Shown here: one piece after another, positions 2,764 to 60,311 of the stretch
Position numbering within the stretch: the stretch's first letter is position 1
Layout: each line of letters opens with the position of its first letter
Source of the DNA: Acidobacteriota bacterium
Lineage (GTDB): Bacteria; Acidobacteriota; UBA6911; JACQSX01
Direction of reading: 5' to 3'
DNA length: 60,342 nucleotides
Assembly (NCBI GenBank): GCA_036505615.1
Contig: DASXTB010000111.1
Location: 1-60,342, forward strand
The notes under the pieces: model-generated
Seen by the model: the letters and a program-made list of their open reading frames with translations, nothing else
What the model was told of the DNA's origin: nothing
Database searches by the model: none
Program-made: the position numbers and the translations under genes

Positions 2764-2924
2764 GCCATCGGTCATCGGTCATCAGTCATCGGTCATCGGT
2801 TATTGCTAGGAGCTTCGGTCTTCGCAGATTGTTGTTCTGAGACATCTACTTACCGATCATATTTTTGAGAGATAACCAGTCACGATCGCCGATGACCGAT
2901 GACTGATGACTGATGACTGATGAC
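2764..2924. repeat. tandem-heptamer hairpin (CATCGGT)n / (ACCGATG, ACTGATG)n
   Basis: Arms 2764-2800 and 2875-2924, with a ~75-nt unique spacer. Confidence 0.9.
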
Positions 2925-2932
2925 TATTAGCA

Positions 2933-14740: not shown

Positions 14741-14805
14741 GACAATTCTTTCGCACAGGCGACTGACCACGGACAACGGACAACTGACAATCTAAAGGAA
14801 GGTAC

Positions 14806-15339: not shown

Positions 15340-15427
15340 TCGTCCCCCTTCCGAGACTGTTGCTCAAATCAGAACCGCGAGCGTGAGAAAACGTGCAAAA
15401 ATCAGAACTGCGCCCCTTCAGGGGAGG

Positions 15428-18461: not shown

Positions 18462-19940
18462 ATGATAGGACGTAGAAGTTTCTTGCAGAAATCGGCTTTA
18501 ACTCTGGGGGCCGTGGCGATGGAGAAATGGCCTCTTGCCACTGCTCAAAAATCCTCTGCCATGATCGGCATCCAAGTGGGAGCCATTTCGTTCCTAGACG
18601 AGGGCACCGGCAGGGTGCTGGATGGCTTTCAGGAAATGGCGGGAGTCAACACACTGTTCCTTGCGACATTCACTTACGGAAGAGGCATCGCCGGACGACA
18701 GCCTCGCCCCAATCCGCTTCCCGATCATGGCAAGCAGGAATACGACGACCAATTTCACGGAGGAAATTTCGCTACTCCGCATCCGCAATATTACCGCAAT
18801 ACCAGCATCCAGCCGGAGAAAGCGCCCGATCATCCCAACTACGACGTCATCGCCGACGTGCTGCCCGAGGCGCATCGCCGCGGGATGAAGGTGATCTGCT
18901 GGTTCGAGGATGTCTTTCGCAAGGATGTTGCCGGGGTAGACCAAGCCGTCGAGATCGATCTGCACGGCAAGCCGACGACACGCACCTGCATGCGCAACCG
19001 CAACGCGCGGAACTTCTGGCTTGGCCTGGCGGAGGATTATCTCCGTTCCTATGACATCGACGGCTTGATGTGGGGAAGCGAGCGGCAGGGACCGCTGAAT
19101 AATGCTCTGGGCTCAAGCCACGGGGGTGGAGCAAATCCGGCCAACGTGGGGTGTTTTTGCAATTACTGCCAGGAAGCCGCGCGTGAAGAAGGCATTAATG
19201 TTGATCGCGCGCGTCAGGGATATCTTGCGCTGGAGCGGTGGATCTCTGAAATGAAGAATGGCAGGCGTCCCACCGATGGCGCTTTCGTCACTTTCTGGCG
19301 CATTCTGGTGACTCATCCGGAAGTACTGGCGTGGGAGCGACTATGGAATAACGGCCTGCAGGATACTTATCGCGCGATGTACCAGCACGCGCGCTCCATC
19401 AAACCGGCAACACCGGTTGGCTGGCACGTCTGGCACAACAACTCCTTTTCGCCGTTGTATCGAGCAGAACAGGACTATAAGGAGTTCAGTAAATATTCGG
19501 ATTACCTGAAAGTCGTCATGTACAACAACTGCGGCGGTCCACGCATGGCTCAGTACGTTCGAAACGTCAATTCTACACTGTTTGCTGATTTAACACCTGA
19601 GCAGGCACTGGAATTTATCTATAGCGTGCAGCAGTACCCCAATGAAAAACGCCTGGGTCAAATCGCTCACGATGGACTGAGCGCCGACTATGTGCTTCGC
19701 GAAACACGTCGAGCTGTCGCGGGCGTCAATCCAAATGTGAAAATCTGGCCGGGAATTGACATTGATATTCCAACGGGCGCGAACGAAAAGAAGACGCAAC
19801 CAGATGACGTGTACCAAGCGGTGAAAGCAGCTTTTGCAGGGGGCGCGCAGGGAGTGATTCTATCGCGCAAGTATTCGGAGATGAAACTTGCCAACCTTCG
19901 AGCCGCCGGCCGTGCCGTGCGGGAGCTGAAACTGGCGTGA
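18462..19940 (+). CDS. Tat-signal hypothetical protein (possibly glycosidase-like TIM barrel)
   Basis: GGAGGA RBS, ATG 18462, twin-arginine signal GRRSFLQKSALTLGAV; 492 aa. No family recognised with confidence. Confidence 0.6.
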   Translation: MIGRRSFLQKSALTLGAVAMEKWPLATAQKSSAMIGIQVGAISFLDEGTGRVLDGFQEMAGVNTLFLATFTYGRGIAGRQPRPNPLPDHGKQEYDDQFHGGNFATPHPQYYRNTSIQPEKAPDHPNYDVIADVLPEAHRRGMKVICWFEDVFRKDVAGVDQAVEIDLHGKPTTRTCMRNRNARNFWLGLAEDYLRSYDIDGLMWGSERQGPLNNALGSSHGGGANPANVGCFCNYCQEAAREEGINVDRARQGYLALERWISEMKNGRRPTDGAFVTFWRILVTHPEVLAWERLWNNGLQDTYRAMYQHARSIKPATPVGWHVWHNNSFSPLYRAEQDYKEFSKYSDYLKVVMYNNCGGPRMAQYVRNVNSTLFADLTPEQALEFIYSVQQYPNEKRLGQIAHDGLSADYVLRETRRAVAGVNPNVKIWPGIDIDIPTGANEKKTQPDDVYQAVKAAFAGGAQGVILSRKYSEMKLANLRAAGRAVRELKLA

Positions 19941-19950
19941 GAAAGCTGAA

Positions 19951-19985
19951 GGGAGAAGGGAGAAGGGAGAAGGGAGAAGGGAGAA
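19951..19985. repeat. (GGGAGAA)5 perfect heptamer array
   Basis: 35 nt of exact GGGAGAA repeats, starting 11 nt after the stop at 19940. G3N4 pattern. Confidence 0.95.
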
Positions 19986-20007
19986 AGCGGAAGGCAGACA
20001 ACTGGTA

Positions 20008-20047
20008 GCTGGCTGAGAGCTTAGAGCCGAGAGCTGAGAGCTGAGCA
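20008..20047. repeat. (GCTGAGA)-type heptamer array
   Basis: GCTGGCTGAGAGCTTAGAGCCGAGAGCTGAGAGCTGAGCA. Not complementary to the neighbouring GGGAGAA array. Confidence 0.9.
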
Positions 20048-24005: not shown

Positions 24006-24294
24006 AGTCACACGTCAGCAAGTCAACAAGTCGCAAGTCAACAGGTTAGCAGGTTACAAGTTAGCAGGTTAGCAGGTTGGTAAGTCGAAGCTCGAAATGA
24101 TCTCCTCAAAGCTGAGTAAGCCCTTGCTTCTCGGCATCGCGAGGAGGAATTCTATCATGCTTAAACCCCGGACTATCAGGCGGAAGTGATGATGTGAAGG
24201 GTTACCTATACTGCCAAGTTTGCCAACTTGCGGAGCTGGAACCTGCCAACCTGCAACCTGTAAACCTATAAACTGGCAAACCCACAAACCTGCA
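24006..24294. repeat. tandem 7-8 nt repeat hairpin (GCAGGTTA / AAGTCAAC units)
   Basis: Left arm 24006-24092 and right arm 24211-24294 (AACCTGC-type units); ~120-nt spacer; imperfect complementarity. Confidence 0.8.
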
Positions 24295-24305: not shown

Positions 24306-24659
24306 TCAGATATCGCGAAGATCTTCCTCTGTCATTCCGAAATGATGTCCGATTTCATGCTGCAGCGTGGCCCGCACCTGCCGTTCCAATTCCTCTTCCG
24401 TGCGGCAAATGCGCTGAATATTTCTCTGAAACAGAAAAACCACATCTGGGGGAATAAATGCCATGAAAGTGGAGCGCTTCGGCTGTGGCACGCCGTGATA
24501 CAAGCCAAGCAACATTCCGCGGAAGGCTCCTTGTTGCTCCCTTGTAGGCTCCTGTTCCACTATCACTTCAACGTTATCGAGCTTGGAACGAAATTCTGGA
24601 GGAAGAGAGTCGATAGCTCGCTGGACCAGCTCCCGGAATCGTTCTTCGGTGACGCGCAT
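24306..24659 (-). CDS. small zincin-like metallopeptidase-family protein
   Basis: 117 aa with HExxH (LQHEIGHHFGM), as in the small 'metallopeptidase family protein' group. Confidence 0.75.
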   Translation of the reverse strand: MRVTEERFRELVQRAIDSLPPEFRSKLDNVEVIVEQEPTREQQGAFRGMLLGLYHGVPQPKRSTFMAFIPPDVVFLFQRNIQRICRTEEELERQVRATLQHEIGHHFGMTEEDLRDI

Positions 24660-24667
24660 AAAGGAAG

Positions 24668-25027
24668 TTTCGGGTTTCGGGTGCCGGGTGTCGAGTGCCG
24701 GGTGTCGGGTGCCGGGTGTCGGGTGTCGGGTTTCGGGTGCCGGGTGTCGGGTGTCGGGTATTGGGTGTCGGGTATTCGGTTTTGGGCTTAACGCCCTTCA
24801 GGTTATCCTAAACTTGGAACCCAACACGTGATTCAGCACCCAATACCTAAGACCCAATACCTAAGACCCAATACCCGACACCCGACACCCGGCACCCGAC
24901 ACCCGGCACCCGAAACCCGACACCCGACACCCGGCACCCGACACCCGACACCCGACACCCGGCACCCGAAACCCGAAACCCGACACCCGACACCCGACAC
25001 CCAACACCCGGCACTCGAGACCAATAC
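24668..25027. repeat. tandem-heptamer hairpin (GGGTGTC/GGGTGCC)n / (GACACCC/GGCACCC)n
   Basis: About 17 heptads at 24668-24786, a ~50-nt spacer, then about 27 complementary heptads at 24837-25027. It fills the whole gap between two minus-strand genes. Confidence 0.95.
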
Positions 25028-34500: not shown

Positions 34501-34651
34501 AGATCTTTACCGATACTCCCGGCAGAACCGCGCCCGAAGAATCTCTGACCTGTCCAGTCACCTGTCCGGTCGTTGCCTGAGATTGAGGGAACAAGGCAAC
34601 GAATGCAAAACAGAAAACACAGAGCAGCGAAACAATTCGCAGCAGTTTCAA
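31541..34651 (-). CDS. TonB-dependent receptor with N-terminal carboxypeptidase-regulatory-like domain
   Basis: [24 protein letters not shown]...[13 protein letters not shown]; ends ...GLRYQF. TTG 34651 (6 nt after GGAGG) is preferred to the upstream TTG 34675 of the ORF track. Confidence 0.85.
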
Positions 34652-35182: not shown

Positions 35183-35345
35183 TTCTCCTCCATGATCCGG
35201 AAATTCTAGCAGATTGGCCGCCAATTCCTCCCGACAGCTTTCAATCAAATCTAATTCCCTGCGGACTTTCGATGTCGCGCCTTCGGCGCTTTATATTTTT
35301 AGGTTAACCCTCACTTCCGCCCTGACGGGCGGGCCTACCCAATGA

Positions 35346-35470: not shown

Positions 35471-35517
35471 CTGCGATGCATGGCAACGTATACGCGCGAC
35501 GCAAGATGTAAATACTC

Positions 35518-35555
35518 CTTGTATATTTATGCATTTTCGTGCATAAATATGCATC
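35518..35555 (+). promoter_or_regulatory. candidate tandem ARG boxes (ArgR/AhrC-type operator) overlapping the argC start region
   Basis: TGTATATTTATGCA (35520-35533) and TGCATAAATATGCA (35540-35553) are 14-bp imperfect palindromes of the TGNAT-W4-ATNCA type. They are 13/14 identical as inverted copies, lie 20 bp centre to centre, and end 5 nt before the argC ATG. Confidence 0.5.
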
Positions 35556-35557
35556 TT

Positions 35558-36667
35558 ATGGTTCACGAACTGCGGGCGGCCGTGATAGGCGCGACCGGCT
35601 ATTCCGGAAGGGAACTAGTGCGATGGCTGCAACAACATCCTGTGGCGAAGCCCGTCTTGCTCACCGGTTCCAGGAAAGCTTTGCCGGAGTTGCGCCGCTT
35701 TGTCTGCTCTCTTCCGGCCGATGTGTTTGTCCCGTTTCGGTACGGCGAGAATTTCCTTGAGGAGTTGCTGGATGTCGTCGCCCTCAGGAAGGTGGGCGTG
35801 GTGTTTCTGGCCACTGAGATTGAAAGTGCCGTGGGATTGGCACCCGAGCTCCTGCAGCAGGATGTGGTGGTGATCGATCTCAGTGCCGGCTTTCGTATAA
35901 AAAACGAGAAGCTCTACCGCGAATGGTATTCGCTGGTGCATCCGTGTCCCGAACTCCTGGAGCGAGCCGTCTATGGCCTGTCGGAATACCATCGGGAAGC
36001 AATCACCGCCGCCTCGCTGATTGCAAATCCGGGGTGTTACCCTACATCGGTTCTGCTGGCGTTGTTGCCGGCGCTCGAATTCATCGACTGGGAAGCGCCA
36101 GTGATTTGCGACAGCAAGTCCGGCCTGACCGGCGCGGGCCGGAACGCCGATTATATATTCGCCGAAATCAACGAAAACTGTCTGGCGTACAAACTGGGAA
36201 ATCATCGCCATATCCCGGAAATGCTTCAGGGCCTGGGCAAACCCGTGGGAGATGGAATTCCGTTCGTGTTCGCGCCGCATCTGGTTCCGATGAATCGGGG
36301 AATCCTCAGCACTTGTTATTTCCGCGCAAAAGTCGGCGTAAGCGAAGCCGGTTTGCGCCGGCAATATGAAGAGAAATACAAAGGGTCTCCCTTCGTCACG
36401 TTGCTGGCGCCGGGTGTGTTGCCCCAGGTTCAAATGGTGGCACATACCAATCGTTGTGAAATGGCGTTGTTTGTCCATGGCGATTCGCGCATGATGACGG
36501 TGGTTTCGGCTATCGACAACTTGGTAAAGGGAGCCGCCGGTCAGGCGATACAGAATATGAATATAAGGTTTGGGCTGGACGAGGCGGCCGGACTCACGGG
36601 AACGGCACTCGGTGGCCGGCAAGAGGGAGAAGGCAGAAAGCAGAAGGCAGAAAGCAGACGGCAGTAG
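35558..36667 (+). CDS. argC: N-acetyl-gamma-glutamyl-phosphate reductase
   Basis: [14 protein letters not shown], active-site [24 protein letters not shown] 35558; ORF-track codons upstream are REP-derived. The last ~15 codons and the stop lie inside a tandem-repeat array. Confidence 0.9.
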
Positions 36668-37025
36668 GAAGAAGGCAGGAGCCAGGAGGCAGGAGGCAGG
36701 AAGCAGGAGGCAGGAGGCAGAAGGCAGGAAGCAGGAGGCAGGAAGCAGGGTGCAGAAGGCAGAAGGCAGAAGGCCAGAGGGAGAAGGGAGAAGGCAGGCG
36801 CTAGAGATACTAAGTAGGATGCAATGGCCGGAACGCATAGTGGAAAGTGGCAGACAGGAACCGGAAAGCAAACTGCAAGATGTAACGCCCACAAACAGCT
36901 TCCTGCCTCCTGCTTCGTGCCTCCCGCCTTCTGCCTCCCGCCTCCTGTTTCCTGCCTCCTGCTTTCTGCCTCCTGCTTCCTGCCTCCTGCCTTCTGCCTC
37001 CTGCCTTCCGCTTTCTGCCTTCTCT
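36621..37025. repeat. tandem-heptamer hairpin (GGCAGGA/GGCAGAA/AGCAGGA)n / (TCCTGCC/TTCTGCC)n
   Basis: Left arm 36621-36800 (about 25 heptads), 96-nt spacer, right arm 36897-37025 (about 18 heptads). The argC stop (36665-36667) lies inside the left arm. The argB ATG is 11 nt after the right arm. Confidence 0.95.
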
Positions 37026-37035
37026 TACAAAAAAG

Positions 37036-37824
37036 ATGAGACTAGTTATTAAATTAGGCGGTAGCCTCCTGACAGAGATTTCCCGGCGCAGACCTCTTCT
37101 AGAACAGTTAATGCGCGTTCATAACCAGGGACATCGATGCCTCCTGGTTCATGGAGGTGGCAAGCTACTCACCTCTTACCTTGAAAAGGCCGGGATATCC
37201 TCGCAGTTTATTCACGGGCTGCGCGTCACGGATGCGCCGACGCGCGACGCCGCACTGATGGTAATGGGCGGCCTGCTCAACAAACAACTGGTGGTGGAAA
37301 TCCAGAACCTGGGCGGGCGGGCACTGGGAGTTTGCGGCGATGCAGGTCTGATCACCGCGCGCAAGGCAGAGTCCGAGGCGTACGGCGGAGCAGATCTCGG
37401 GTACGTGGGCGAAGTGGAACACGTCGATGGCCGGCTGCTGGCGCAGCTGCACGCGCTCGGTCTTATTGTGGTAATGGCCAGCTTGGCGCCGGATGCGCGG
37501 GGCGAGTTTTACAACATCAACGCCGATCTGCTGGCCGCTTCCTGCGCCGCGGCCCTGCAGGCGGACCGGTTGATTTTCCTGACCGACGTCGATGGAGTAC
37601 TCGATGCCGGCGGCAATCGCCTCAACAATCTCTCCAGAGATCAAGTCGACAGCCTGGTCGCGCAGGGAGCTGTCGGCGGTGGTATGCTTCCGAAGCTGAA
37701 GTCTTGTTTGATGGCCCTGGAAAAAGGGGTACAGTGCGTACGCATCGTGCCGGGTTATGGCGAGGGTAGTCTGTTGAGGGCGCTGGAGCCCAAGTTAGAT
37801 TCGCGAGGAACCGAAATTCGATGA
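37036..37824 (+). CDS. argB: acetylglutamate kinase
   Basis: Amino-acid-kinase fold blocks VIKLGGS, VHGGG, NINAD, GGGMLPKL. Confidence 0.9.
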   Translation: MRLVIKLGGSLLTEISRRRPLLEQLMRVHNQGHRCLLVHGGGKLLTSYLEKAGISSQFIHGLRVTDAPTRDAALMVMGGLLNKQLVVEIQNLGGRALGVCGDAGLITARKAESEAYGGADLGYVGEVEHVDGRLLAQLHALGLIVVMASLAPDARGEFYNINADLLAASCAAALQADRLIFLTDVDGVLDAGGNRLNNLSRDQVDSLVAQGAVGGGMLPKLKSCLMALEKGVQCVRIVPGYGEGSLLRALEPKLDSRGTEIR

Positions 37825-39536
37825 CCAGTAATTTTTCTTCCCAGCAGCTCGAGGATAAGTTCTATCTGCCGGTCTTCAAAAAAGCACCCTTTGAACCGGT
37901 GCGCGGTGAAGGCGTATATCTGTACGAAGAGAGCGGCAAACAATACCTCGATTTTCTGGCGGGCATCGCAGTCAACGCTCTCGGATATAACCATCCTGAG
38001 CTGACCCGCGCCATCCAGGACCAGTCAACCCGCGTACTGCATGTAAGTAATTTGTTCTATCACCCTTATGCCGGTCCGCTGGCGCGCAAACTGGCGAGAA
38101 TGTCCGGATTGCGGCGTGCCTTCTTTACCAACAGCGGGACGGAAGCGGTGGAAGGCGCCATCAAGATAGCCCGCGCGCACTCAAGAGGTGACAAGGACAA
38201 AATCAAGTTTGTGGCGCTGGAAAACTCCTTTCATGGCAGAACTGCGGGTGCTCTTTCGTTGACTCATGGGGAGAAGTATCGGAAACCTTTCGAGCCTCTA
38301 TTGCCGGGTATTCAGTTCGTTCCCCCAAATGACGTCGATGCGCTGAATAAGGCCATCGATGAAGACACAGCGGCCTTTATCGCCGAACCGATTTTGGGGG
38401 AAGGCGGAATCATTTCGCTGACTCCCGATTATTTGAAAGAGGCCAGTGAACTGTGCCATCGCCACAACGCGCTGATGATCCTGGACGAAATCCAATGCGG
38501 GTTAGGGAGGACCGGATATCCCTTTTACTTTCAGAAATCCGGAATTCTGCCCGATGTCGTTCTGCTGGCCAAGTCCCTCGGGGTAGGACTTCCACTGGGC
38601 GCGATTCTGGTGGGCGAGAAGGCCGAGCGGGCGCTGCAGCCGGGGGATCACGGCACCACGTTTGGCGGAGGCCCGCTGGCTTGCCGGGCGGCGTTGACCT
38701 TTTTAGAAATACTGGAGCGTGACAACCTGATGCTTCATGCCGCGCAGATGGGTGACTACCTGCGGTCCCGTCTTGCCGAGCTTCAACAGGAGTTCCCCAT
38801 CCTGGAGATCCGCGGCGAGGGACTGATGGTGGGTGTGGTCTTGGACTTGGATGTTCCGGCGCTGGTAAGGCAGTTGTTGCAGGACGGGATCGTCACCAAC
38901 TGCACGGCGGGGAACGTGCTTCGATTGCTTCCACCTCTGGTAATTCGCACTGAGCACGTGGATGAGTTTATCTCTGGCCTGCGCAACGCGCTGGAGGCGG
39001 CGCGCAAGAAAACGCCGGCGAACATCGTCTCTGTCGGCGGGCAGGGCGACGTGGTTGTTCGCAAGGCGCGCATGTCCGACGTTCCGGCAATGGAGCATTT
39101 GATCAACGGCTACGCACGGGAGAACGTGATGCTGCCTCGAACACGGACTCAGTTATGCGAAACGCTGCGCGAGTTCGTGGTAGCGGAAGTAGACGGCGAA
39201 TTTGCCGCCTGTGGCGCCTTGCATCTGTATAGCATGAATACGGCGGAACTGCGGTCGCTCGCTGTGTCTGAGAAATTCCTGAAACGGAAACTGGGTGCCA
39301 GGATTGTACACGCGTTGCTGGAAGACGCGGCGGAATACGACTTGGAGCGCGTTTATACCTTCACCCTGGTGCCGGATTTCTTTCGTAAGCTGAATTTCCG
39401 GATGGTACCGCACAGCGCCCTGCCGGAGAAAGTGCTCAGTGAATGCGCCGGCTGCCCCAAGAGAGACCAGTGCAACGAAGTTGCCTTGGTCTACGAGGTA
39501 GGCGTCGAGGCGCGCCGCCGGCATACTGGCATCTAG
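37821..39536 (+). CDS. argD: acetylornithine aminotransferase fused to a C-terminal single-domain N-acetylglutamate-synthase-like GNAT
   Basis: Class-III aminotransferase blocks (SGTEAVEGAIK, DEIQCGLGRTG, LAKSLG) up to about aa 400. They are followed by a ~165-aa GNAT (VVVRKARMSDVPAMEHL...EFVVAE...CGALH...ELRSLAV) resembling short NAGS enzymes. The ATG overlaps the argB stop (ATGA). Confidence 0.85.
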   Translation: MTSNFSSQQLEDKFYLPVFKKAPFEPVRGEGVYLYEESGKQYLDFLAGIAVNALGYNHPELTRAIQDQSTRVLHVSNLFYHPYAGPLARKLARMSGLRRAFFTNSGTEAVEGAIKIARAHSRGDKDKIKFVALENSFHGRTAGALSLTHGEKYRKPFEPLLPGIQFVPPNDVDALNKAIDEDTAAFIAEPILGEGGIISLTPDYLKEASELCHRHNALMILDEIQCGLGRTGYPFYFQKSGILPDVVLLAKSLGVGLPLGAILVGEKAERALQPGDHGTTFGGGPLACRAALTFLEILERDNLMLHAAQMGDYLRSRLAELQQEFPILEIRGEGLMVGVVLDLDVPALVRQLLQDGIVTNCTAGNVLRLLPPLVIRTEHVDEFISGLRNALEAARKKTPANIVSVGGQGDVVVRKARMSDVPAMEHLINGYARENVMLPRTRTQLCETLREFVVAEVDGEFAACGALHLYSMNTAELRSLAVSEKFLKRKLGARIVHALLEDAAEYDLERVYTFTLVPDFFRKLNFRMVPHSALPEKVLSECAGCPKRDQCNEVALVYEVGVEARRRHTGI

Positions 39537-39626: not shown

Positions 39627-39649
39627 CACTTTGATGCGAGGTGCAGGTG

Positions 39650-39898
39650 ATGACTAGAACCATAACGATGAGGCTGGATGAGGAAACTTATAAGAAGTTG
39701 AAGGCTGCTGCGGCTGCCGAGCGGCGGTCTCTAGCAAATCTCATCGAGACTGCAGCTCTTCGCCATCTGGAAGATAGTGAGTTCGTCGATGATATTGAAA
39801 CGCGTGACATTCTTTCCGATCCTGATCTATTGAAGCGTCTCAGATCCGGACACCTCCAGGCAAGGAAGCGGAAGGGCGCCTTTGTCCGCGGCCTATAG
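39650..39898 (+). CDS. ribbon-helix-helix (CopG-type) antitoxin
   Basis: TITMRLDEETYKKLKAAAAAERRSLANLIETAAL is an RHH pattern. It overlaps the downstream RelE-like ORF by 17 nt. GAGGTG RBS before ATG 39650. Confidence 0.7.
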   Translation: MTRTITMRLDEETYKKLKAAAAAERRSLANLIETAALRHLEDSEFVDDIETRDILSDPDLLKRLRSGHLQARKRKGAFVRGL

Positions 39899-40166
39899 GA
39901 TTTTCGAGACTAAGCAGTTCCAGCGAGACCTGGAGAAATTGGGCCTTTCTGCCAGCCAGCGTATTCGCGAGAAGCTGCGCGGCCACGTTTATCCAGTTTT
40001 GGTCCAGAATCCATGGTTCGGCCCGAATATTAAGCGCCTTCGCCGTCTGGAGCCGTCGACATGGAGATACCGCGTCGGCCAGTGGCGCTTCTTTTACACA
40101 ATCGACGAAGAACAGAACACTGTATTCATGCTTGTTGCCGACAACAGAAGCAGCGCATACCGGTAG
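39882..40166 (+). CDS. RelE/ParE-family type II toxin
   Basis: 94 aa with the pattern ...NPWFGPNIKRL......WRYRVGQWRFFYTIDEE.NTVFMLVADNRSSAY, typical of the RelE/ParE fold. TTG start. Confidence 0.75.
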   Translation: MSAAYRIFETKQFQRDLEKLGLSASQRIREKLRGHVYPVLVQNPWFGPNIKRLRRLEPSTWRYRVGQWRFFYTIDEEQNTVFMLVADNRSSAYR

Positions 40167-40201: not shown

Positions 40202-41590
40202 GTGAACAGTTCTGTGTCTCTACCTCCTTGGAGAAATTGCCCCGGCGGCATCTGCGCGGCTCGAGGCTTCCTGGCCGCCGCTGAGCGCGCGGGTCTCAAG
40301 AAAGCCGGCCTCGATCTGACTATCATTGTCTCTGACCGGCCGGCCAGCGCCGCTGCCTGCTTTACGCGCAACCGCTGCGCGGCGGCGCCCGTCACGGTGA
40401 GCCGTGAACATTTGAAAAAAAACAAAGGCCGCGCTCGGGCGATTCTCGCCAATTCGGGCTGTGCCAATGCAGCCACGGGAGAACGGGGCCTGCAGGATAC
40501 CCGCTCCACCGTCGATGCGCTGGCAAGGAGCCTGGACCTGCCCCCATCCTCTATTTTGGTCTGCTCTACCGGGGTTATCGGTCTGCCGCTGCAGGCCGAC
40601 AGAATCATCGCAAAGCTTCCGGTCTGTGTCAGTCGCCTCAGCCGCAAACAGGCGAGGCGAGCGGCGCAGGCCATCGCGACAACAGATAGCGTCCTTAAGA
40701 TTGAATCTATCGCGTTTCAAGCCGCCAGCGGAGCGGTACGCGTTGGCGGCATTGCAAAGGGCGCCGGGATGATCCATCCGGACATGGCCACAATGTTGGC
40801 GTTCATCACAACCGACGCGGCGATATCACCGGCAATGCTGCAGCGGTGTCTGACCTGGTGCGTGGAGCGGTCGTTTAACTGCATCACCGTCGACGGCGAT
40901 ACTTCGACTAATGATACCGTCATCTTGCTTGCCAACGGCGCCTCTGGGGTTGAGGTTATGGAGGAACCAGCCAGCGGGCGGATAGACTCGCGGACACGGA
41001 GACACGGAGACACGGGGGCCATCGTCGCATCGCCGCGTCCCCGCGTCCCCGCGTCGCGACACTCCCTGTCGCCGCGTTCCCTTATCCCCGCGTCGAAGCC
41101 TGCCGTGTCGTCTCACCTCCAAGACCAGGTATGCGAGGACGACTTCCGCGCTGCTCTGCTGGAAGTCTGTCAGAGGCTGGCGCGAAAGATCGCGTGGGAC
41201 GGCGAAGGAGCGACCCATCAACTGGAAATCCGGGTTACCGGCGCTAGGTCTTTCGAGCAGGCAAGGAATGTCGGCCGTTCCATCGGCCGTTCGAATCTGG
41301 TCAAGACAGCCATTTACGGGCATGATCCCAATTGGGGACGGGTATTGAGCGCCGCGGGCGCGTCCGGTGAGCGCATTGACAGTTCGCGTGTCCAACTGGC
41401 GATCGATGGCCAAGTCGTAGCCGAAGGAGGAGTCTTAAAATACCTGCCTGATTCGGTTTTCACTTCGGTGTGGAAGAAGAAAAAAATTGAAATTGCGATC
41501 GATCTTGGCCTGCGTGACGCCAACGCCACCTGTTGGAGCTGCGACCTGTCGCACCAGTACGTCGATATCAACGCGAGCTACCGAACATGA
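40202..41590 (+). CDS. argJ: bifunctional glutamate N-acetyltransferase / ornithine acetyltransferase
   Basis: GMIHPDMATMLAFITTDA (self-cleavage site), DGDTSTND, DGEGATH, CDLSHQYVDINASYRT. Contains a repeat-derived in-frame insertion (see findings). Confidence 0.9.
   Translation: MNSSVSLPPWRNCPGGICAARGFLAAAERAGLKKAGLDLTIIVSDRPASAAACFTRNRCAAAPVTVSREHLKKNKGRARAILANSGCANAATGERGLQDTRSTVDALARSLDLPPSSILVCSTGVIGLPLQADRIIAKLPVCVSRLSRKQARRAAQAIATTDSVLKIESIAFQAASGAVRVGGIAKGAGMIHPDMATMLAFITTDAAISPAMLQRCLTWCVERSFNCITVDGDTSTNDTVILLANGASGVEVMEEPASGRIDSRTRRHGDTGAIVASPRPRVPASRHSLSPRSLIPASKPAVSSHLQDQVCEDDFRAALLEVCQRLARKIAWDGEGATHQLEIRVTGARSFEQARNVGRSIGRSNLVKTAIYGHDPNWGRVLSAAGASGERIDSSRVQLAIDGQVVAEGGVLKYLPDSVFTSVWKKKKIEIAIDLGLRDANATCWSCDLSHQYVDINASYRT
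40985..41116. repeat. 8-nt repeat arrays (GACACGGA)3 ... (CCCGCGTC)3 inside the argJ ORF
   Basis: CGGACACGGAGACACGGAGACACGGGGG at 40990-41018 and CGCGTCCCCGCGTCCCCGCGTCGCGAC at 41034-41060, plus CCCCGCGTC and CCGTGTCGTCTC further on. Partially complementary arms. Confidence 0.8.
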
Positions 41591-43464: not shown

Positions 43465-43599
43465 GCTGCCAGTTCTCAGCTTTCAGCCAAGAAGCCCAGA
43501 ATCAAGCCCCTGGAGACGAATCTCATTGATAGGGCTGATGGTTGATGGCTGACATCTGATGGCCGAGAGCTGATGGCTGACAGCTGAGAGCTGAGAGCT
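43465..43599. repeat. heptamer hairpin with unequal arms (GCTGAGA/GCTGATG units)
   Basis: Short arm GCTGCCAGTTCTCAGCTTTCAGCC (43465-43488) is complementary to the long array at 43532-43599. That array abuts the ferredoxin stop. Confidence 0.75.
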
Positions 43600-45054: not shown

Positions 45055-45206
45055 TTCTCTAGTTTCAAGTTTGTATTTTGTCCCTTGTCACTGGACCGTC
45101 GCCATAAAGTGGTTTGCCTAGAGAGTCAGCTTTGCGCACAACGGGCTTCGTCCAGAGGTACAACGGACGACTGACCACTGACAACGGACAAAGTAAAACT
45201 CGGAAC

Positions 45207-45623
45207 CTAGAGTCGGTACAGCATCCAATATACGATAACGCCGGTGACGGAAACATACATCCAGAGTGGAAAAGTCCAGCGAGCGATTTTCTTGTGCTTT
45301 TGAAAATCTCCCCTGAGAGCTCGGCTTACGGTAATTAGTGCCAGCGGAACAATTATCACAGCCAGAAGCGTGTGGCTGAAGAGAATAGACAGATAAACGG
45401 AGCGAATCACGCCGGACTTCTGGAAATGCTTGGAACCGGCGTAATAGTGATAGGTCAGGTAGGAAATTAGAAAGAGCGTTGAAGAACAAAAAGCTGATCC
45501 CATGAGGAAACGGTGCGCGCTGATTTTCCCACTGCGGATGCAAAAGTAGCCCACGGCCAGAAGAATGGCGCTACTGGCGTTGAGGATGGCATTCACCGTC
45601 GGCAGGTTTTGAATCGGTATCAT
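45207..45623 (-). CDS. DUF420-family membrane protein (cytochrome-oxidase-associated family)
   Basis: 138 aa, four TM helices, DUF420-like sequence (NAILNASSAILL..G...I......HR..M). Located directly downstream of ctaA-ctaB. Confidence 0.8.
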   Translation of the reverse strand: MIPIQNLPTVNAILNASSAILLAVGYFCIRSGKISAHRFLMGSAFCSSTLFLISYLTYHYYAGSKHFQKSGVIRSVYLSILFSHTLLAVIIVPLALITVSRALRGDFQKHKKIARWTFPLWMYVSVTGVIVYWMLYRL

Positions 45624-45629
45624 ATTGAG

Positions 45630-46249
45630 TGTCAGTTGTTGGGTGTCGGGTATCGGGTGTCAGGTGACGGGTGTTGGGTGTTGGGTGTCGGGTGTCGGGT
45701 GTCGGGTCGAGTGTCGGGTGACGGGTATCGGGTGTCGGGTGACGGGTATCGGGTGTTGGGTGTCGGGTGTCGGGTATCGGGTGTCAGGTATCGGGTGTCG
45801 GGTGACAGGTCTCGGGTGTCAGGTATCGGGTGTCGGGTGTCAGGTAAGGGGTGACGGGTGTCAGGTGTCAGGTTTCGGGTGTCGGATGCATCAGTCACCG
45901 AAAAGACTCATATCAACAGATTGAAAGATGTTTGCCCAACACCCGTCACCCGATACCCGATACCCGTCACCCAACACCCGTCACCCGATACCCGTCACCC
46001 GACACCCGATACCCGTCACCCGTCACCCAACACCCGTCACCCGTCACCCAACACCCAACACCCAACACCCGTCACCCGATACCCGTCACCCGTCACCCGA
46101 CACCCGATACCCGTCACCCGTCACCCGTCACCCAACACCCGTCACCCGTCACCCAACACCCAACACCCAACACCCAACACCCAACACCCAACACCCGTCA
46201 CCCAACACCCAACACCCAACACCCAACACCTGACACCCAACACCCAACG
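45630..46249. repeat. giant tandem-heptamer hairpin (GGGTGTC family), about 36 + 45 units
   Basis: G-rich arm 45630-45885, ~50-nt spacer, C-rich arm 45935-46248. It occupies the entire ctaB-DUF420 intergenic gap. Confidence 0.95.
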
Positions 46250-47595: not shown

Positions 47596-48588
47596 TTAAG
47601 TAGTCTGTTCCCAATTTCCATGGTCCCCAATTTCCATCATTCGGGTCCATTTGCGGCCAATGTTCGCCCCTGGGTATCGCCTGTGAATTCTCAAAGCGAG
47701 CAACAGTGCAGAGGCCAAAATGAGCGCGCCCAAAGCAACGTGAGCCGTAGAGCTCCAGACGTACTCGAAGATCGGCTGAGGAGCGCGCAAATTCTCCTTC
47801 TTGATAAAGAAGGTTGCCGTCCCCAAGAGTGCCTGGCCCACCACCAGACCCAGCAGAAAGAGCGAATGCCGATTCAGCTCGCCGGGGTAAAACCTTACCG
47901 TTATTACTGCAAGCCGCGCGGCCAACAGTACAACCACGGCAGCCCCGAGGATGTGCGAACCGATCCCCAAAGCATTATGCCGGTAGCCCGCGCCCAGTAT
48001 CAGCTGCGCGTAAACGGCAGCAACCAGGCAAAGGCTGATCCCACGAAGGCTGGGACGGTCTTCGGGATCCGTCTCAGACTGCTGGCCGGCCCACTTGTCG
48101 CCCGTTACCACCGCCGTAGAGATCGTTAGGCAAAAGAATGCCTGAGCCAGCGAAGCGTGGGCCATGGAAACTGCGGGCGGCAGGAAGTACAGTACGGTAA
48201 TTCCGCCCAGCAGCCCCTGTAGGATCACCGTAGCCATCGCCGTCCATCCGAGTCTGCGTACCCATCTGCGGGGCTCCTTCACTGAAATCCAGACTGCCAG
48301 TATGACGGTGAGCATTCCCACGAAAGCAGCAACCATGCGATGGCTATGCTCGTAGAGAACCCCGCCGGGCATCTCAGGCAACCATTTACCGAAGGAAAGC
48401 GGCCAATCTGGAACTGCAAGTCCGGCATCGTTGCTGGTCACAAGGCCCCCGGCGATGATCAAAAAGAAAGTGCAGACCGCGGTGAAGCAGGCGAAGCGGT
48501 GTAACGATTTCGGATTGCGGATTTCGGATTGCGGATTATTCGATTTCGGATTGCGGATTTCGGATTGCGGATTAAGTCGTGAAGGCAT
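47596..48588 (-). CDS. ctaA: haem A synthase (COX15/CtaA family)
   Basis: Eight-TM COX15/CtaA-type ORF (YEHSHRMVAAFVG, GAGYRHNALG). ATG 48588 (or TTG 48603). The first ~30 codons are the repeat arm (NPQSEIRNPKS twice). Confidence 0.85.
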   Translation of the reverse strand: MPSRLNPQSEIRNPKSNNPQSEIRNPKSLHRFACFTAVCTFFLIIAGGLVTSNDAGLAVPDWPLSFGKWLPEMPGGVLYEHSHRMVAAFVGMLTVILAVWISVKEPRRWVRRLGWTAMATVILQGLLGGITVLYFLPPAVSMAHASLAQAFFCLTISTAVVTGDKWAGQQSETDPEDRPSLRGISLCLVAAVYAQLILGAGYRHNALGIGSHILGAAVVVLLAARLAVITVRFYPGELNRHSLFLLGLVVGQALLGTATFFIKKENLRAPQPIFEYVWSSTAHVALGALILASALLLALRIHRRYPGANIGRKWTRMMEIGDHGNWEQTT

Positions 48589-48743
48589 TTGATTTGCTCT
48601 CAATTTCCATCTCCACTCGAACCGAACTTAAAGGAAGCTAGGCTAAAGTCCACAATCGATCAATCCGAAATCCGAAATCCGCAATCCGCAATTGGGCTAT
48701 CCGCAATCCGAAATCCGCAATTGGGCAATCCGCAATCCGAAAT
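48505..48743. repeat. tandem 7-8 nt repeat hairpin (CGGATTG/CGGATTT)n / (AATCCGC/AATCCGA)n
   Basis: Left arm 48505-48574 (inside the ctaA 5' end), ~80-nt spacer, right arm 48657-48743 (ends 4 nt before the cupredoxin stop). Confidence 0.9.
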
Positions 48744-49643: not shown

Positions 49644-49982
49644 GAGTTGCCGGTTTCTGGTCCCCAGTTGCCAGTTCCTAGTTGCCAGTCGCCTGTAATT
49701 TTGAAATCGGAACTACGGATCCATGATCTCACTGCAGAGGCGCAGAACCTGTAAAAGAATCAGAACCGCGCCCGTCAGGGCGCGTGCGGAGAATCTTTGT
49801 CAATTCCCGGCGCCTGCAAAACGCTTTGAACTGCCAGCAACTTAGAAAGTTTACGGCGAATCTTGTTACATTCTCCGCGCGCGCCCTGACGGGCGCGGTT
49901 CTGATTCTTGCTGTGGTTCTGCGGTGAATCGTACTACCGATTGCAAAGTTACAGGCAACTAGGAACTGGAAACTGGCAACTG
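49644..49982. repeat. nested double palindrome
   Basis: Outer arms 49644-49703 and 49944-49982 (CAGTTGC/CAGTTCC units). Inner inverted repeat 49742-49803 / 49862-49922 is about 60 nt and highly similar; each copy carries its own GCGCCCGTCAGGGCGC hairpin. Confidence 0.9.
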
Positions 49983-54232: not shown

Positions 54233-55159
54233 CTACGCCGCAGGTTTCTTCATTACTTCCGATTCCAGAACCACCGGCGCCGGGCCCGAAATGCTTCCAT
54301 CCTTGCGCACGCGCCAGAAATGTACGATCAGGAAAATGGAAAGCACGATGGGAATCCCGATGCAATGCCAGATATAAGCGCGGAGCAAAGCATTGGCGTC
54401 TACGATTGAACCGCCCAGCAGAGCGAATCGAACATCGTTGTAAGGAGTCATGCCGAGCTGCGAACCGAAAGGACCTTCATGTCCCAACATGGGTGTGGCG
54501 CGCGCCATGTTTGTCCCCACCGTGACGGCCCAGAAGCCCAACTGGTCATCCGGCAAGAGGTATCCGGTGAAGGACAACAGCAGTGTAAACAGCATCAGGA
54601 TCACGCCCACTACCCAGTTGAATTCCCGCGGCGGCTTGTAGGAGCCGGTCAGAAACACGCGAAACATGTGCAGCCAGACGGTGATGATCATCAGGTGTGC
54701 CGCCCAACGGTGCATGTTGCGCAACAGCAGTCCGAAGGGGACGTCATGCTCCAGGTACATGATGTCGCGGTAAGCCTGCATCTTGCTGGGATGGTAGTAA
54801 AACATGAGCAGCGCCCCGGTGAATGTCAGGACAATGAATAAATAAAAGGTAATCCCTCCCATTCCCCAAGTGAACCTGAATCGGACCGCGTCGCGGTTTA
54901 CCTTGGCCGGGTGCAGATGCAGAAAAACATTGGTTAGAACCGCCAAAGCCCGGTTGCGAGGAGAATCGTCCAGCTTGTGGCGGATCACGGATCGCCAGAG
55001 CTGTGTTTTCTTGGGCTCGCGCAGAACCTCTTTGGTGTCTGCGGCAGCTTTTTCGACCAGAGGTTTGATTTGCTCGCGCAGCCTGGCAACGCCGGACAGA
55101 GATTTCTCTTCGGCCTTGGTTTCCGTCTTTACAATCTTGTCGTCCTTGTCTTCAGCCAT
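54233..55159 (-). CDS. cytochrome b (b6-like N-terminal four-helix part)
   Basis: Blocks FTWGMGGITFYLF, LLRNMHRWAAHLMIITVWLHMFRVFLTGSYK, SFTGYLLPDDQLGFWA. Confidence 0.9.
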   Translation of the reverse strand: MAEDKDDKIVKTETKAEEKSLSGVARLREQIKPLVEKAAADTKEVLREPKKTQLWRSVIRHKLDDSPRNRALAVLTNVFLHLHPAKVNRDAVRFRFTWGMGGITFYLFIVLTFTGALLMFYYHPSKMQAYRDIMYLEHDVPFGLLLRNMHRWAAHLMIITVWLHMFRVFLTGSYKPPREFNWVVGVILMLFTLLLSFTGYLLPDDQLGFWAVTVGTNMARATPMLGHEGPFGSQLGMTPYNDVRFALLGGSIVDANALLRAYIWHCIGIPIVLSIFLIVHFWRVRKDGSISGPAPVVLESEVMKKPAA

Positions 55160-55164
55160 AAGAC

Positions 55165-55276
55165 TGCAGGTTGCAAAGTTAGCAAGTTAGCAGGTTCGCA
55201 AGTTAACAACTTGGCACGTTAGGGGTCTCTGGCTCGCGGACCTGCTAACTTGTTAACCTGCAAACCTGCAAACAAG
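55165..55276. repeat. tandem 7-8 nt repeat hairpin (GCAGGTT/GCAAGTT units)
   Basis: Arms 55165-55215 and 55240-55276, located between the Rieske stop and the cytochrome b start. Confidence 0.85.
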
Positions 55277-56530: not shown

Positions 56531-56741
56531 GTCCGTTGTCCGTTGTCAGGTCGCAGGTAGCAAGTCGCAGGTCGAAAGTCGCAAGTCGCAGGTCGAAAGT
56601 CGCAGGTCGAAAGTCGATTGGCTGGCGTTTGAGTGGGAACCCACGAGTGAAATTTGAAAATTGGATTTAGAGCTTCCCACTTTCGACTTTCGACTTTAGA
56701 CCTTCGACTTTCGACCTTCGACTTTCGACCTTCGACTTTCA
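56531..56741. repeat. tandem-heptamer hairpin (GTCGCAG/GTCGAAA)n / (CTTTCGA/CCTTCGA)n
   Basis: Left arm 56531-56616 (starts with GTCCGTT x2), ~60-nt spacer, right arm 56678-56741, ending 12 nt before the stop of the CMD-like gene. Confidence 0.9.
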
Positions 56742-59976: not shown

Positions 59977-59985
59977 CTCGTTGTA

Positions 59986-60074
59986 GCAGACTAACTCCGA
60001 GCAGACTAACTCCGGAGCAGACTAACTCCGCGTCTCACGTTTGAGCGCGAGCAGACTAACTCCGGACTAACTCC
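59986..60074 (+). repeat. short direct repeats (GCAGACTAACTCCG x4, ACTCCGC.TCTCA)
   Basis: GCAGACTAACTCCG occurs at 59986, 60001, 60017 and 60051. Confidence 0.85.
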
Positions 60075-60311
60075 GCATCTCAACTCCGCATCTCACGTTT
60101 GAGCAGGTAATTTGCCATTTTGACGCTGACTTACCGCTCTGTAGCGGTCGTTTTCGATCTCCCTTTCCCAACAAATTTTACAGTCCCGATCACGCATCTC
60201 AACTCCGCATCTCACGTTTGAGCAGTTAATTTGCCATTTTGACGCTGACTTACCGCTCTGAAGCGGTCGTTTTCGATCTCCCTTTCCCAACAAATTTTAC
60301 AGTCCCGATCA
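60075..60311 (+). repeat. two tandem copies of a 118-nt unit (period 119)
   Basis: 60075-60192 and 60194-60311 differ at two positions. Each copy contains an ACCGCTCTGNAGCGGT hairpin. Confidence 0.95.

Follow-up and report, generated by a model that had tools for sequence, protein, structure and literature searches.

An excess of heptamer repeats in bacterial genomes has been recognised since about 2007 and is still unexplained. The STRR heptanucleotide repeats, reportedly described by Mazel and colleagues in 1990 in the cyanobacteria Calothrix and Anabaena, comprise several different tandem heptamers dispersed through the intergenic regions of one genome, operons included, and are usually described as single direct arrays. 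The closest described system to the locus reported here is the GGGAATC heptamer of Xanthomonas, which occupies about 186 sites, 89–93% of them intergenic and mostly between open reading frames (ORFs) of the same direction, with the upstream ORF 28 nt away on average and its stop codon in some cases overlapped; 70–75 inverted pairs are able to form stem-loops, position and type are conserved between two species while length varies, and the repeats are transcribed, with unknown function (Rehm et al. 2015, PMC4692102). In the present study, we analysed an element between argC and argB, in which an array of (GGCAGGA)n faces one of (TCCTGCC)n, on contig DASXTB010000111.1 of an Acidobacteriota bacterium (assembly GCA_036505615.1), the whole 60,342-nt forward strand of which is referred to below as the window. 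The element is a real, long-lived example of the bacterial heptamer-repeat phenomenon and no new kind of regulator. It is probably an inverted pair of heptanucleotide simple sequence repeat (SSR) arrays, or "SSR hairpin", transcribed as an intercistronic hairpin, with RNase III processing or RNA stability as its most likely point of action.

The window shares with the Xanthomonas GGGAATC and Nostoc GGGGAYT repeats the tandem 7-nt units, the inverted pairs, the placement between same-direction ORFs and near the upstream stop codon, and a conserved position with variable length (PMC4692102). In Xanthomonas, one unit with a G3 tract dominates, mostly in about four copies (up to 14–18), and a G-quadruplex has been proposed (PMC4692102), whereas the window holds at least 6–8 unit families side by side, with arms of 25–44 units, an arg unit that has only GG runs, junctions filled to within a few nucleotides, and one extended enzyme. 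The only experimentally shown mechanism among the cases found comes from the 5′ untranslated region (UTR) of hmw1A in Haemophilus influenzae, where a heptamer repeat likewise serves as a hairpin arm: the (ATCTTTC)n repeat is transcribed, forms a long RNA hairpin and is cleaved by RNase III, with a change in expression, and its copy number changes only if the repeat is transcribed, the hairpin can form and RNase III is present (Rapun-Araiz et al. 2025, PMC12721329). That locus, a classic case of phase variation, combines one repeat arm with a G-rich region and belongs to the 5′ UTR of an adhesin gene (PMC12721329), whereas both arms of the arg element are arrays and the element is intercistronic in a biosynthetic operon. 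The TAACTGA repeats of Beggiatoaceae and cyanobacteria, found at about 170 intergenic sites and often ending 1 nt before a start codon with no evident dispersal mechanism, differ in having 2–6 copies of a single unit that contains forward stop codons and in being almost never inverted (one case) (MacGregor 2015, PMC4679880). Heptamer-derived satellites occur in Burkholderia and Chloroflexus (PMC6749651), and the growth of such repeats is by standard accounts put down to 7-nt slippage (Mrazek et al. 2007, as summarised in PMC4679880).

Detailed literature on bacterial heptamer repeats was described as scarce in 2015 (PMC4692102), and a survey of short tandem repeats does not mention heptamers (PMC12699852). 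Our literature searches found no description of heptad hairpins for Acidobacteriota. The STRR repeats resemble the present case in having several dispersed heptamers per genome and differ in belonging to another phylum and in not being defined by long paired arms. The REP/BIME of Escherichia coli and the Correia/NEMIS and ERIC elements, the last two processed by RNase III, are hairpin repeats tolerated within operons, where they block exonucleases or serve as RNase III sites and shift the relative expression of flanking cistrons. They are near-identical copies with a conserved sequence, some mobilised by RAYT proteins or transposases, whereas the elements of the window share a periodicity and a few units, with no core. 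New relative to the known cases are the very long arms, the several unit families with 8-nt versions, the nested composites, the exact filling of junctions and the extension of an enzyme.

Tandem Repeats Finder (TRF) delimited the left array with a period of 7, 24.9 copies and the consensus AGGCAGA (GGCAGGA), and the right array at 36901–37006/37023 with a period of 7 (also 14, 21 and 28), about 15–17.5 copies and the consensus TCCTGCC (Table 1); the coordinates and heptad counts of a preliminary description of this locus therefore hold. Two arrays of one unit thus lie on opposite strands of a single intergenic region and are capable of forming a stem-loop. In the best pairing register, 36627–36749 face 36902–37024 with 85% complementarity across 123 nt, leaving 152 nt between the arms. 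The predicted fold of the RNA from 36600 to 37050 has an energy of −252.3 kcal/mol, as compared with −175 ± 6 kcal/mol for 100 dinucleotide-preserving shuffles of the same segment (z = −12.6), none of which reached the native energy. The predicted stems run for dozens of consecutive pairs, more than the roughly 20 bp of double-stranded RNA that would make an RNase III site.

The right arm contains 60 C, 18 G and no A. Because the unit GGCAGGA has GG runs only and no tract of three or more G, which defines a G-quadruplex, at most weak two-tetrad structures are conceivable; readings as CRISPR, as G-quadruplex (no G3 tracts) or as H-DNA fitted neither the arg unit nor the other arrays of the window. 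For the spacer (36798–36900), no match was found in the relatives or in the rest of the window. Rfam 15 gave no hit at the gathering score anywhere in the window, and a tRNA scan of its full length was likewise empty.

The left array reaches into argC, the true start of which (35558, giving a 369-aa product) is not the first ATG of the open frame. Comparison with orthologues showed that the ancestral argC stop has been lost, the predicted translation frame running 22 codons on to a TAG supplied by a T-containing variant heptad and yielding a charged tail. This TAG (36665–36667) is part of the array and lies 44 nt inside it, in agreement with the "about 45 nt" of the preliminary description, which also placed the end of the right arm 11 nt before the argB ATG; that distance is 11 nt from its own end coordinate and 12 nt from the TRF end. 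The first 8 residues of the extension (GTALGGRQ) come from the degenerate lead-in, and the last 14, with the stop codon, from the clean array. The four closest ArgC orthologues without extension (P0003, P0004, P0005 and P0007; 65–75% identity) end at E(T/S)AGL(T/A/R), and P0006 continues for four residues beyond that common end. As a reference for the normal C-terminus, we used 17 ArgC loci from a metagenome pattern scan, all of unrelated taxa; these proteins end 1–9 residues past GL, and none of the 17 loci has an array downstream. Moreover, homology to solved ArgC structures stops at residue 347–349 of 369, and in the AlphaFold model a core with a mean predicted local distance difference test (pLDDT) score of 85 is followed by residues 350–369 below 50. 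These comparisons indicate that the 22-residue tail is extra, and the model predicts it to be disordered. Orthologue ends, the end of structural homology and the low-confidence tail thus agree with the earlier proposal that the array supplies the last argC codons and the stop. The further proposal that such an array can rewrite the C-terminus of a conserved enzyme also stood, since no element-free orthologue was found to share the tail. A longer C-terminus in P0009, considered as a second array-derived tail, was rejected, being a 17-nt overlap of argC with argB.

The same junction was compared among relatives. Two carry no element, argC and argB being separated by 0 nt (TGAATG) in L084 and overlapping by 4 nt (ATGA; gap of −4 nt) in L090. 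Gaps of 47 nt in L082 and 48 nt in L087 hold largely degenerate heptads (GTCAGTN and TCATTGG-like, respectively), and in L108 the contig ends in the spacer, leaving a gap of at least 82 nt. After the extended argC, the gap to the argB ATG is 368 nt in the window and 152 nt in L081. The latter, whose ArgC is 75% identical to that of the window, shares the (GGCAGGA)n/(TCCTGCC)n arms, which measure about 72 and 50 nt there and 174 and 123 nt in the window, and has a second hairpin of (GTCATTN)n/(CCAATGA)n nested inside its own; position and unit are thus kept between related genomes while length varies. The L081 junction is predicted to fold as one continuous hairpin (−156 kcal/mol, z = −12.2), and its ArgC reads through the entire outer arm, acquiring a 34-residue tail with a GT..GRQ lead-in in common with the window ArgC. 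Because of this shared lead-in, the extensions in the two genomes probably go back to one ancestral event. The comparison with L081, which has the same lead-in and arms, indicates that the loss of the stop and the element are neither recent nor unique to the window genome. In the simplest history consistent with these sequences, heptads would have arisen at a tight junction, the stop would have been lost once before the split of the window and L081 lineages, and arm lengths would have drifted since. Arrays or remnants of (GTCATTN)n/(CCAATGA)n were also noted at the argC–argB junction of relatives (L081, 5575–5702; L087, 1515–1560); the inner (TCATTGG)n of L081 is a rotation of TTGGTCA, which we take to be the cyanobacterial STRR2.

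The relatives also have arrays at other junctions (4357–4641 in L084; a 154-nt array at the start of L090) and have none where the window has them, which suggests that gain and loss of arrays are ongoing. No relative with an ArgC more than 75% identical was present in the collections searched. A scan of genome contigs with the generic ArgC motif QAIQNMNI gave at best 40–45% identity among the matches listed, and a scan of metagenome contigs with the clade-specific pattern FPFRYGEN gave no match.

Arrays of this kind are found throughout the window. In a test for periodicity, 1069 sliding windows passed for period 7 as compared with 0–7 for periods 5, 6, 8 and 9, and period-7 sequence covered 1893 nt of the 60-kb window but 101 nt across 80 unrelated argC loci totalling 622 kb, which makes it about 190-fold denser in the window. 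The signal is specific to period 7, and as a property of this DNA it does not reflect chance. Head-to-tail 7-nt copies, far above chance expectation, make up about 3% of the contig bases, with arms of up to 300 nt and 44 units, and some 20 period-7 loci are dispersed over the 60 kb, nearly all outside Pfam-supported coding sequence (CDS). Including the arg element, nine inverted heptad or octad pairs were identified (fold z from −5 to −30), two of them built from 8-nt units. In five of the nine, which are flanked by same-strand genes, each arm end is 5–13 nt away from a CDS. Three others, namely the arg element and the pairs at 48.5 and 49.6 kb, have same-strand neighbours too, and on at least one side the arm stops 2–12 nt short of a CDS. 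Equivalent hairpins separate Rieske from cytochrome b and ctaB from DUF420, gene pairs that look like operons, so that an element of this kind is no peculiarity of the arg operon. Only argC, however, is a confirmed upstream CDS that reads into an arm (none at the other eight pairs). No Shine–Dalgarno-like purine run was found between arrays and downstream starts at 24657–24675, 45621–45640, 55157–55170 and 37024–37038, and by their sequences genes of this lineage may rely little on such motifs.

To what extent the two arms of a pair mirror each other was assessed from the order of heptad variants. The observed score was matched by 1 of 500 shuffles for the 24.7-kb pair, by none of 500 for the 48.5-kb pair and by 36 of 500 for the arg element, but by 488 of 500 for the 45.6-kb pair and by all 500 for the 56.5-kb pair. 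With results so mixed across elements, "arms are strict copies" and "arms are fully independent" were both rejected as general rules; the pattern fits an inverted duplication that would have been followed by independent slippage in each arm.

The arg genes around the element form a conserved setting. The order of genes for a TonB-like outer-membrane protein and Tmemb_14, followed by argC, argB, argD–GNAT and argJ, is retained in relatives, and the argB ATG at 37036 agrees with the MKLVIKLGGSLL of orthologues. The region with ARG-box-like palindromes at 35517–35557 is about 90% conserved in L081, L082 and L084 although the flanking DNA is unalignable, and is the sole copy in the window; a palindrome pair ending a few bases before the ATG suggests control by ArgR and a very short or absent argC leader. 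In two more distant relatives (L088 and L109), argR lies directly upstream of argC.

Presumably, argC and argB once met at a tight junction, and the element originated there in an ancestor common to this genome and that of contig DASYPF010000420. Its arms would have grown and shrunk through 7-nt replication slippage, each arm separately, and template switching between them may have copied units across. Template switching in quasi-palindromes is established in E. coli. The element would thus be one of a lineage-specific population of hairpins that draws on a small repertoire of heptad units and occupies the space between genes of one strand. It is neither transposable nor a conserved RNA gene, and it does not qualify as an intrinsic terminator. 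Because the junction shows neither a sigma-70-like promoter nor a U-tract terminator, and the sole arg operator lies upstream of argC, argB is most likely transcribed through the element, the operon being read from the conserved upstream operator/promoter. Once transcribed, the arms would pair as an imperfect stem of about 120 bp, with about 340 nt looped out. The argC stop, placed in an internal loop over the basal helix of 17 bp, would thereby come near the argB start, 12 nt past the stem. Long double-stranded RNA is a substrate of RNase III, and the stem would be a natural substrate of this enzyme as well as a barrier to 3′ exonucleases. Since the heptamer hairpin of H. influenzae is cleaved by RNase III, we consider processing or differential stability of the argC and argB–argD segments, over termination, to be the most likely effect, and the equivalent hairpins within the cytochrome bc and cta clusters point in the same direction; the net effect on fitness is probably small. 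A self-folding insertion may be the least disruptive one between formerly coupled genes, which would account for the mostly paired state of arrays within operons here and for their closeness to CDS.

Several observations weigh against this account. Particular units recur at unlinked loci, namely ACACCCG (340–413, 24670–25022 and 45629–46245), AGAGCTG (2934–2966, 20012–20045 and 43565–43599) and AACGGAC (14765–14790, 45160–45191 and 56531–56547), each at three places, and the arg unit family (AAGGCAG/AGGAGGC), at 19939–19998 and at another junction in L084. By our own arithmetic, at least 10 coincident unit pairs were seen where about 0.16 were expected (1172 strand-symmetric heptad necklaces, about 20 loci). 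Local slippage does not explain such recurrence, which points to dispersal or to a sequence-specific process. That the same heptad has stayed at the same junction while ArgC identity fell to 75% could point to a selected function and not to neutral turnover. We infer co-transcription, in vivo folding and RNase III cleavage alike, and the promoter scan covered the sigma-70-type consensus only, from which promoters of this phylum may differ. Finally, the assembly may have miscounted heptads in the homogeneous core of the arrays; those that fix the argC frame all differ from one another and hence are likely to have been assembled correctly.

Among the alternatives to an SSR hairpin with an effect on processing or stability, a selected cis-regulatory device is unlikely, though the least so. 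Such a hairpin would mask or position argB initiation, or its base would be melted by ribosomes finishing argC so that argB translation is coupled, or the stem would tune the argC:argB ratio. The predicted fold suits these ideas in that the strand pairing with the 17-bp basal helix, just above which the argC stop is placed, ends 11 nt before the argB ATG; so does the reading of argC into the left arm in both arm-carrying genomes, with retention of element and heptad at their level of ArgC identity, and the fact that the left arm has only two T residues in its 174 nt, one of which belongs to the in-frame TAG. The shared GT..GRQ lead-in, however, probably makes the two extensions a single event and hence no independent replication, four close relatives do with gaps of 0, −4 or about 47 nt, and no confirmed upstream CDS enters an arm at the other eight pairs. 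Besides, arm lengths differ greatly between the two genomes, and the argB start codon itself is outside the stem.

A phase-variable contingency locus, in which 7-nt slippage before the stop would switch ArgC between short and very long tails and so alter the enzyme or downstream expression, is improbable. The last 44 nt of argC are array, and because 7 is not divisible by 3, any gain or loss of a heptad before the stop would reset the tail length. In simulated slips, the tail of 22 residues changed to 15–155 aa, those of ±1 or ±2 heptads giving 63–155 aa; the present frame belongs to the shortest-tail class, and one slipped frame reads across the whole hairpin into the argB start. Heptamer repeats are, moreover, known mediators of phase variation (PMC12721329). 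Nevertheless, the heptads before the stop are rich in variants and not identical, which lowers slippage there, and a housekeeping biosynthetic enzyme is an unlikely target.

Very little can be said for a transcription terminator or insulator parting argC from an independently transcribed argB–argD. In its favour are the high stability of the stem, the 368 nt of untranslated RNA before the next start and the C-rich, G-poor right arm, which would resemble Rho utilisation sites if it were ever single-stranded. Against this, the stem is followed directly by CUUACAAAAAAG with no U tract, no canonical terminator occurs in 36600–37040, no promoter-like site was found in the spacer or linker by the sigma-70-type scan, and the only arg operator in the window precedes argC. 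A hairpin of the same kind also separates the Rieske and cytochrome b genes, and if transcription ended there, an essential complex would be lost.

Insertion of a MITE or REP-like miniature transposable element between argC and argB is more doubtful still, even though the outermost ends form good inverted repeats (GGGAGAAGGCAGAAAGC / GCTTTCTGCCTTCTC), L081 has a hairpin within a hairpin, and the same heptad units appear at unlinked loci. The spacers of the nine elements are unrelated in the 60-kb window, and their comparison with the window and relatives by BLAST, in search of a common core, returned chance 11–14-mers only. No flanking target-site duplication is visible, the arms are tandem arrays of variable length rather than fixed terminal repeats, and neither a transposase gene nor a RAYT-like one is present in the window. 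An artefact of assembling low-complexity sequence is hardly credible: arrays of identical 7-mers are hard to assemble, and contigs of several relatives end in or near arrays (as L090, which begins with one), but the same architecture recurs in the independently assembled L081, L084 and L085 and at nine places in this contig, and the frame-setting part of the array consists of non-identical variants.

Table 1. Features of the argC–argB junction and further inverted repeat pairs of the window
Feature	Position	Strand	Basis and remarks
Candidate promoter/operator, two ARG-box-like palindromes (TGTATATTTATGCA / TGCATAAATATGCA)	35517–35557	+	directly upstream of argC ATG
argC, ancestral part, residues 1–347	35558–36598	+	Pfam Semialdhyde_dh and Semialdhyde_dhC_1; orthologue alignment; PDB homology ends here
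argC extension, 22 codons and TAG	36599–36667	+	last 14 codons and stop within left array
Left arm, about 25 units of (GGCAGRA)n	36624–36797	+	TRF, inverted-repeat search, fold; purine-rich; degenerate lead-in heptads from about 36612
Spacer, 103 nt	36798–36900	+	unique, non-repetitive; loop region of hairpin
Right arm, about 17.5 units of (TCCTGCC)n	36901–37023	+	TRF, inverted-repeat search, fold; complement of left arm
Linker, 12 nt (TCTTACAAAAAAG)	37024–37035	+	sequence; A-rich, right arm to argB ATG, without Shine–Dalgarno-like motif
argB (acetylglutamate kinase)	37036–37824	+	Pfam AA_kinase; start conserved in relatives
argD–GNAT fusion	37821–39536		Pfam; argB end overlaps its start by 4 nt
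Inverted pair	2766–2925		
Inverted pair	24006–24294		8-nt units
Inverted pair	24670–25022		between zincin and short-chain dehydrogenase genes
Inverted pair	45629–46245		largest pair, 617 nt, −505 kcal/mol; between ctaB-like UbiA and DUF420 genes
Inverted pair	48506–48743		
Inverted pair	49645–49982		
Inverted pair	55166–55273		8-nt units; between Rieske and cytochrome b genes, flanks only 5–6 nt
Inverted pair	56547–56740		

Downstream of argB, acetylornithine aminotransferase (ArgD) carries a C-terminal GNAT acetyltransferase domain (571 aa), which may have ArgA-like activity, and the fusion is kept in L084 (572 aa). A type II toxin–antitoxin pair, with a ribbon-helix-helix antitoxin and a ParE-family toxin, lies at 39641–40166 between argD–GNAT and argJ; at this junction, L084 has only a 287-nt gap with no gene called. 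As compared with the L084 orthologue, argJ (40202–41590) contains a low-complexity insertion of about 40 residues at 40984–41057 that coincides with 8- and 16-nt tandem repeats, which suggests that short repeats also expand within a coding region here. A separate, REP-like palindromic repeat, GC-rich with the core CGCGCCCGTCAGGGCGCG, was noted at no fewer than five intergenic sites (about 15367–15415, 19748–19761, 34523–34536, 35318–35331 and 49760–49900), and two of its copies make up an inner hairpin, enclosed by heptad arms, at 49735–49920. The right end of the window (59985–60311) has tandem 15–16-nt repeats (AGCAGACTAACTCCG) and, after them, a duplicated 119-nt unit whose copies are 98% identical.

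For the biology of this lineage, the arg element means that heptad arrays can stay at one junction over long evolutionary time while their length changes, that they can remove a stop codon and lengthen a conserved enzyme by a low-complexity tail, and that they are compatible with tightly packed operons. It also suggests that between coupled genes only self-folding insertions are tolerated. A bolder reading, to which we give little credence, is that heptad hairpins are an actively generated punctuation of operons: RNase III would cut transcribed arrays into near-leaderless cistron units, transcription and RNase III would drive array growth as in hmw, and a sequence-specific process would seed the same heptads. 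The near-leaderless part of this reading follows from the apparent absence of Shine–Dalgarno motifs beside the arrays and from the nearly leaderless look of argC. If it were true, array length and frame-dependent tails would provide a tunable, heritable control of cistron stoichiometry. Given a cultured or long-read-sequenced relative, the system could serve to test whether repeat dynamics of the Haemophilus type, dependent on transcription and RNase III, hold more generally.

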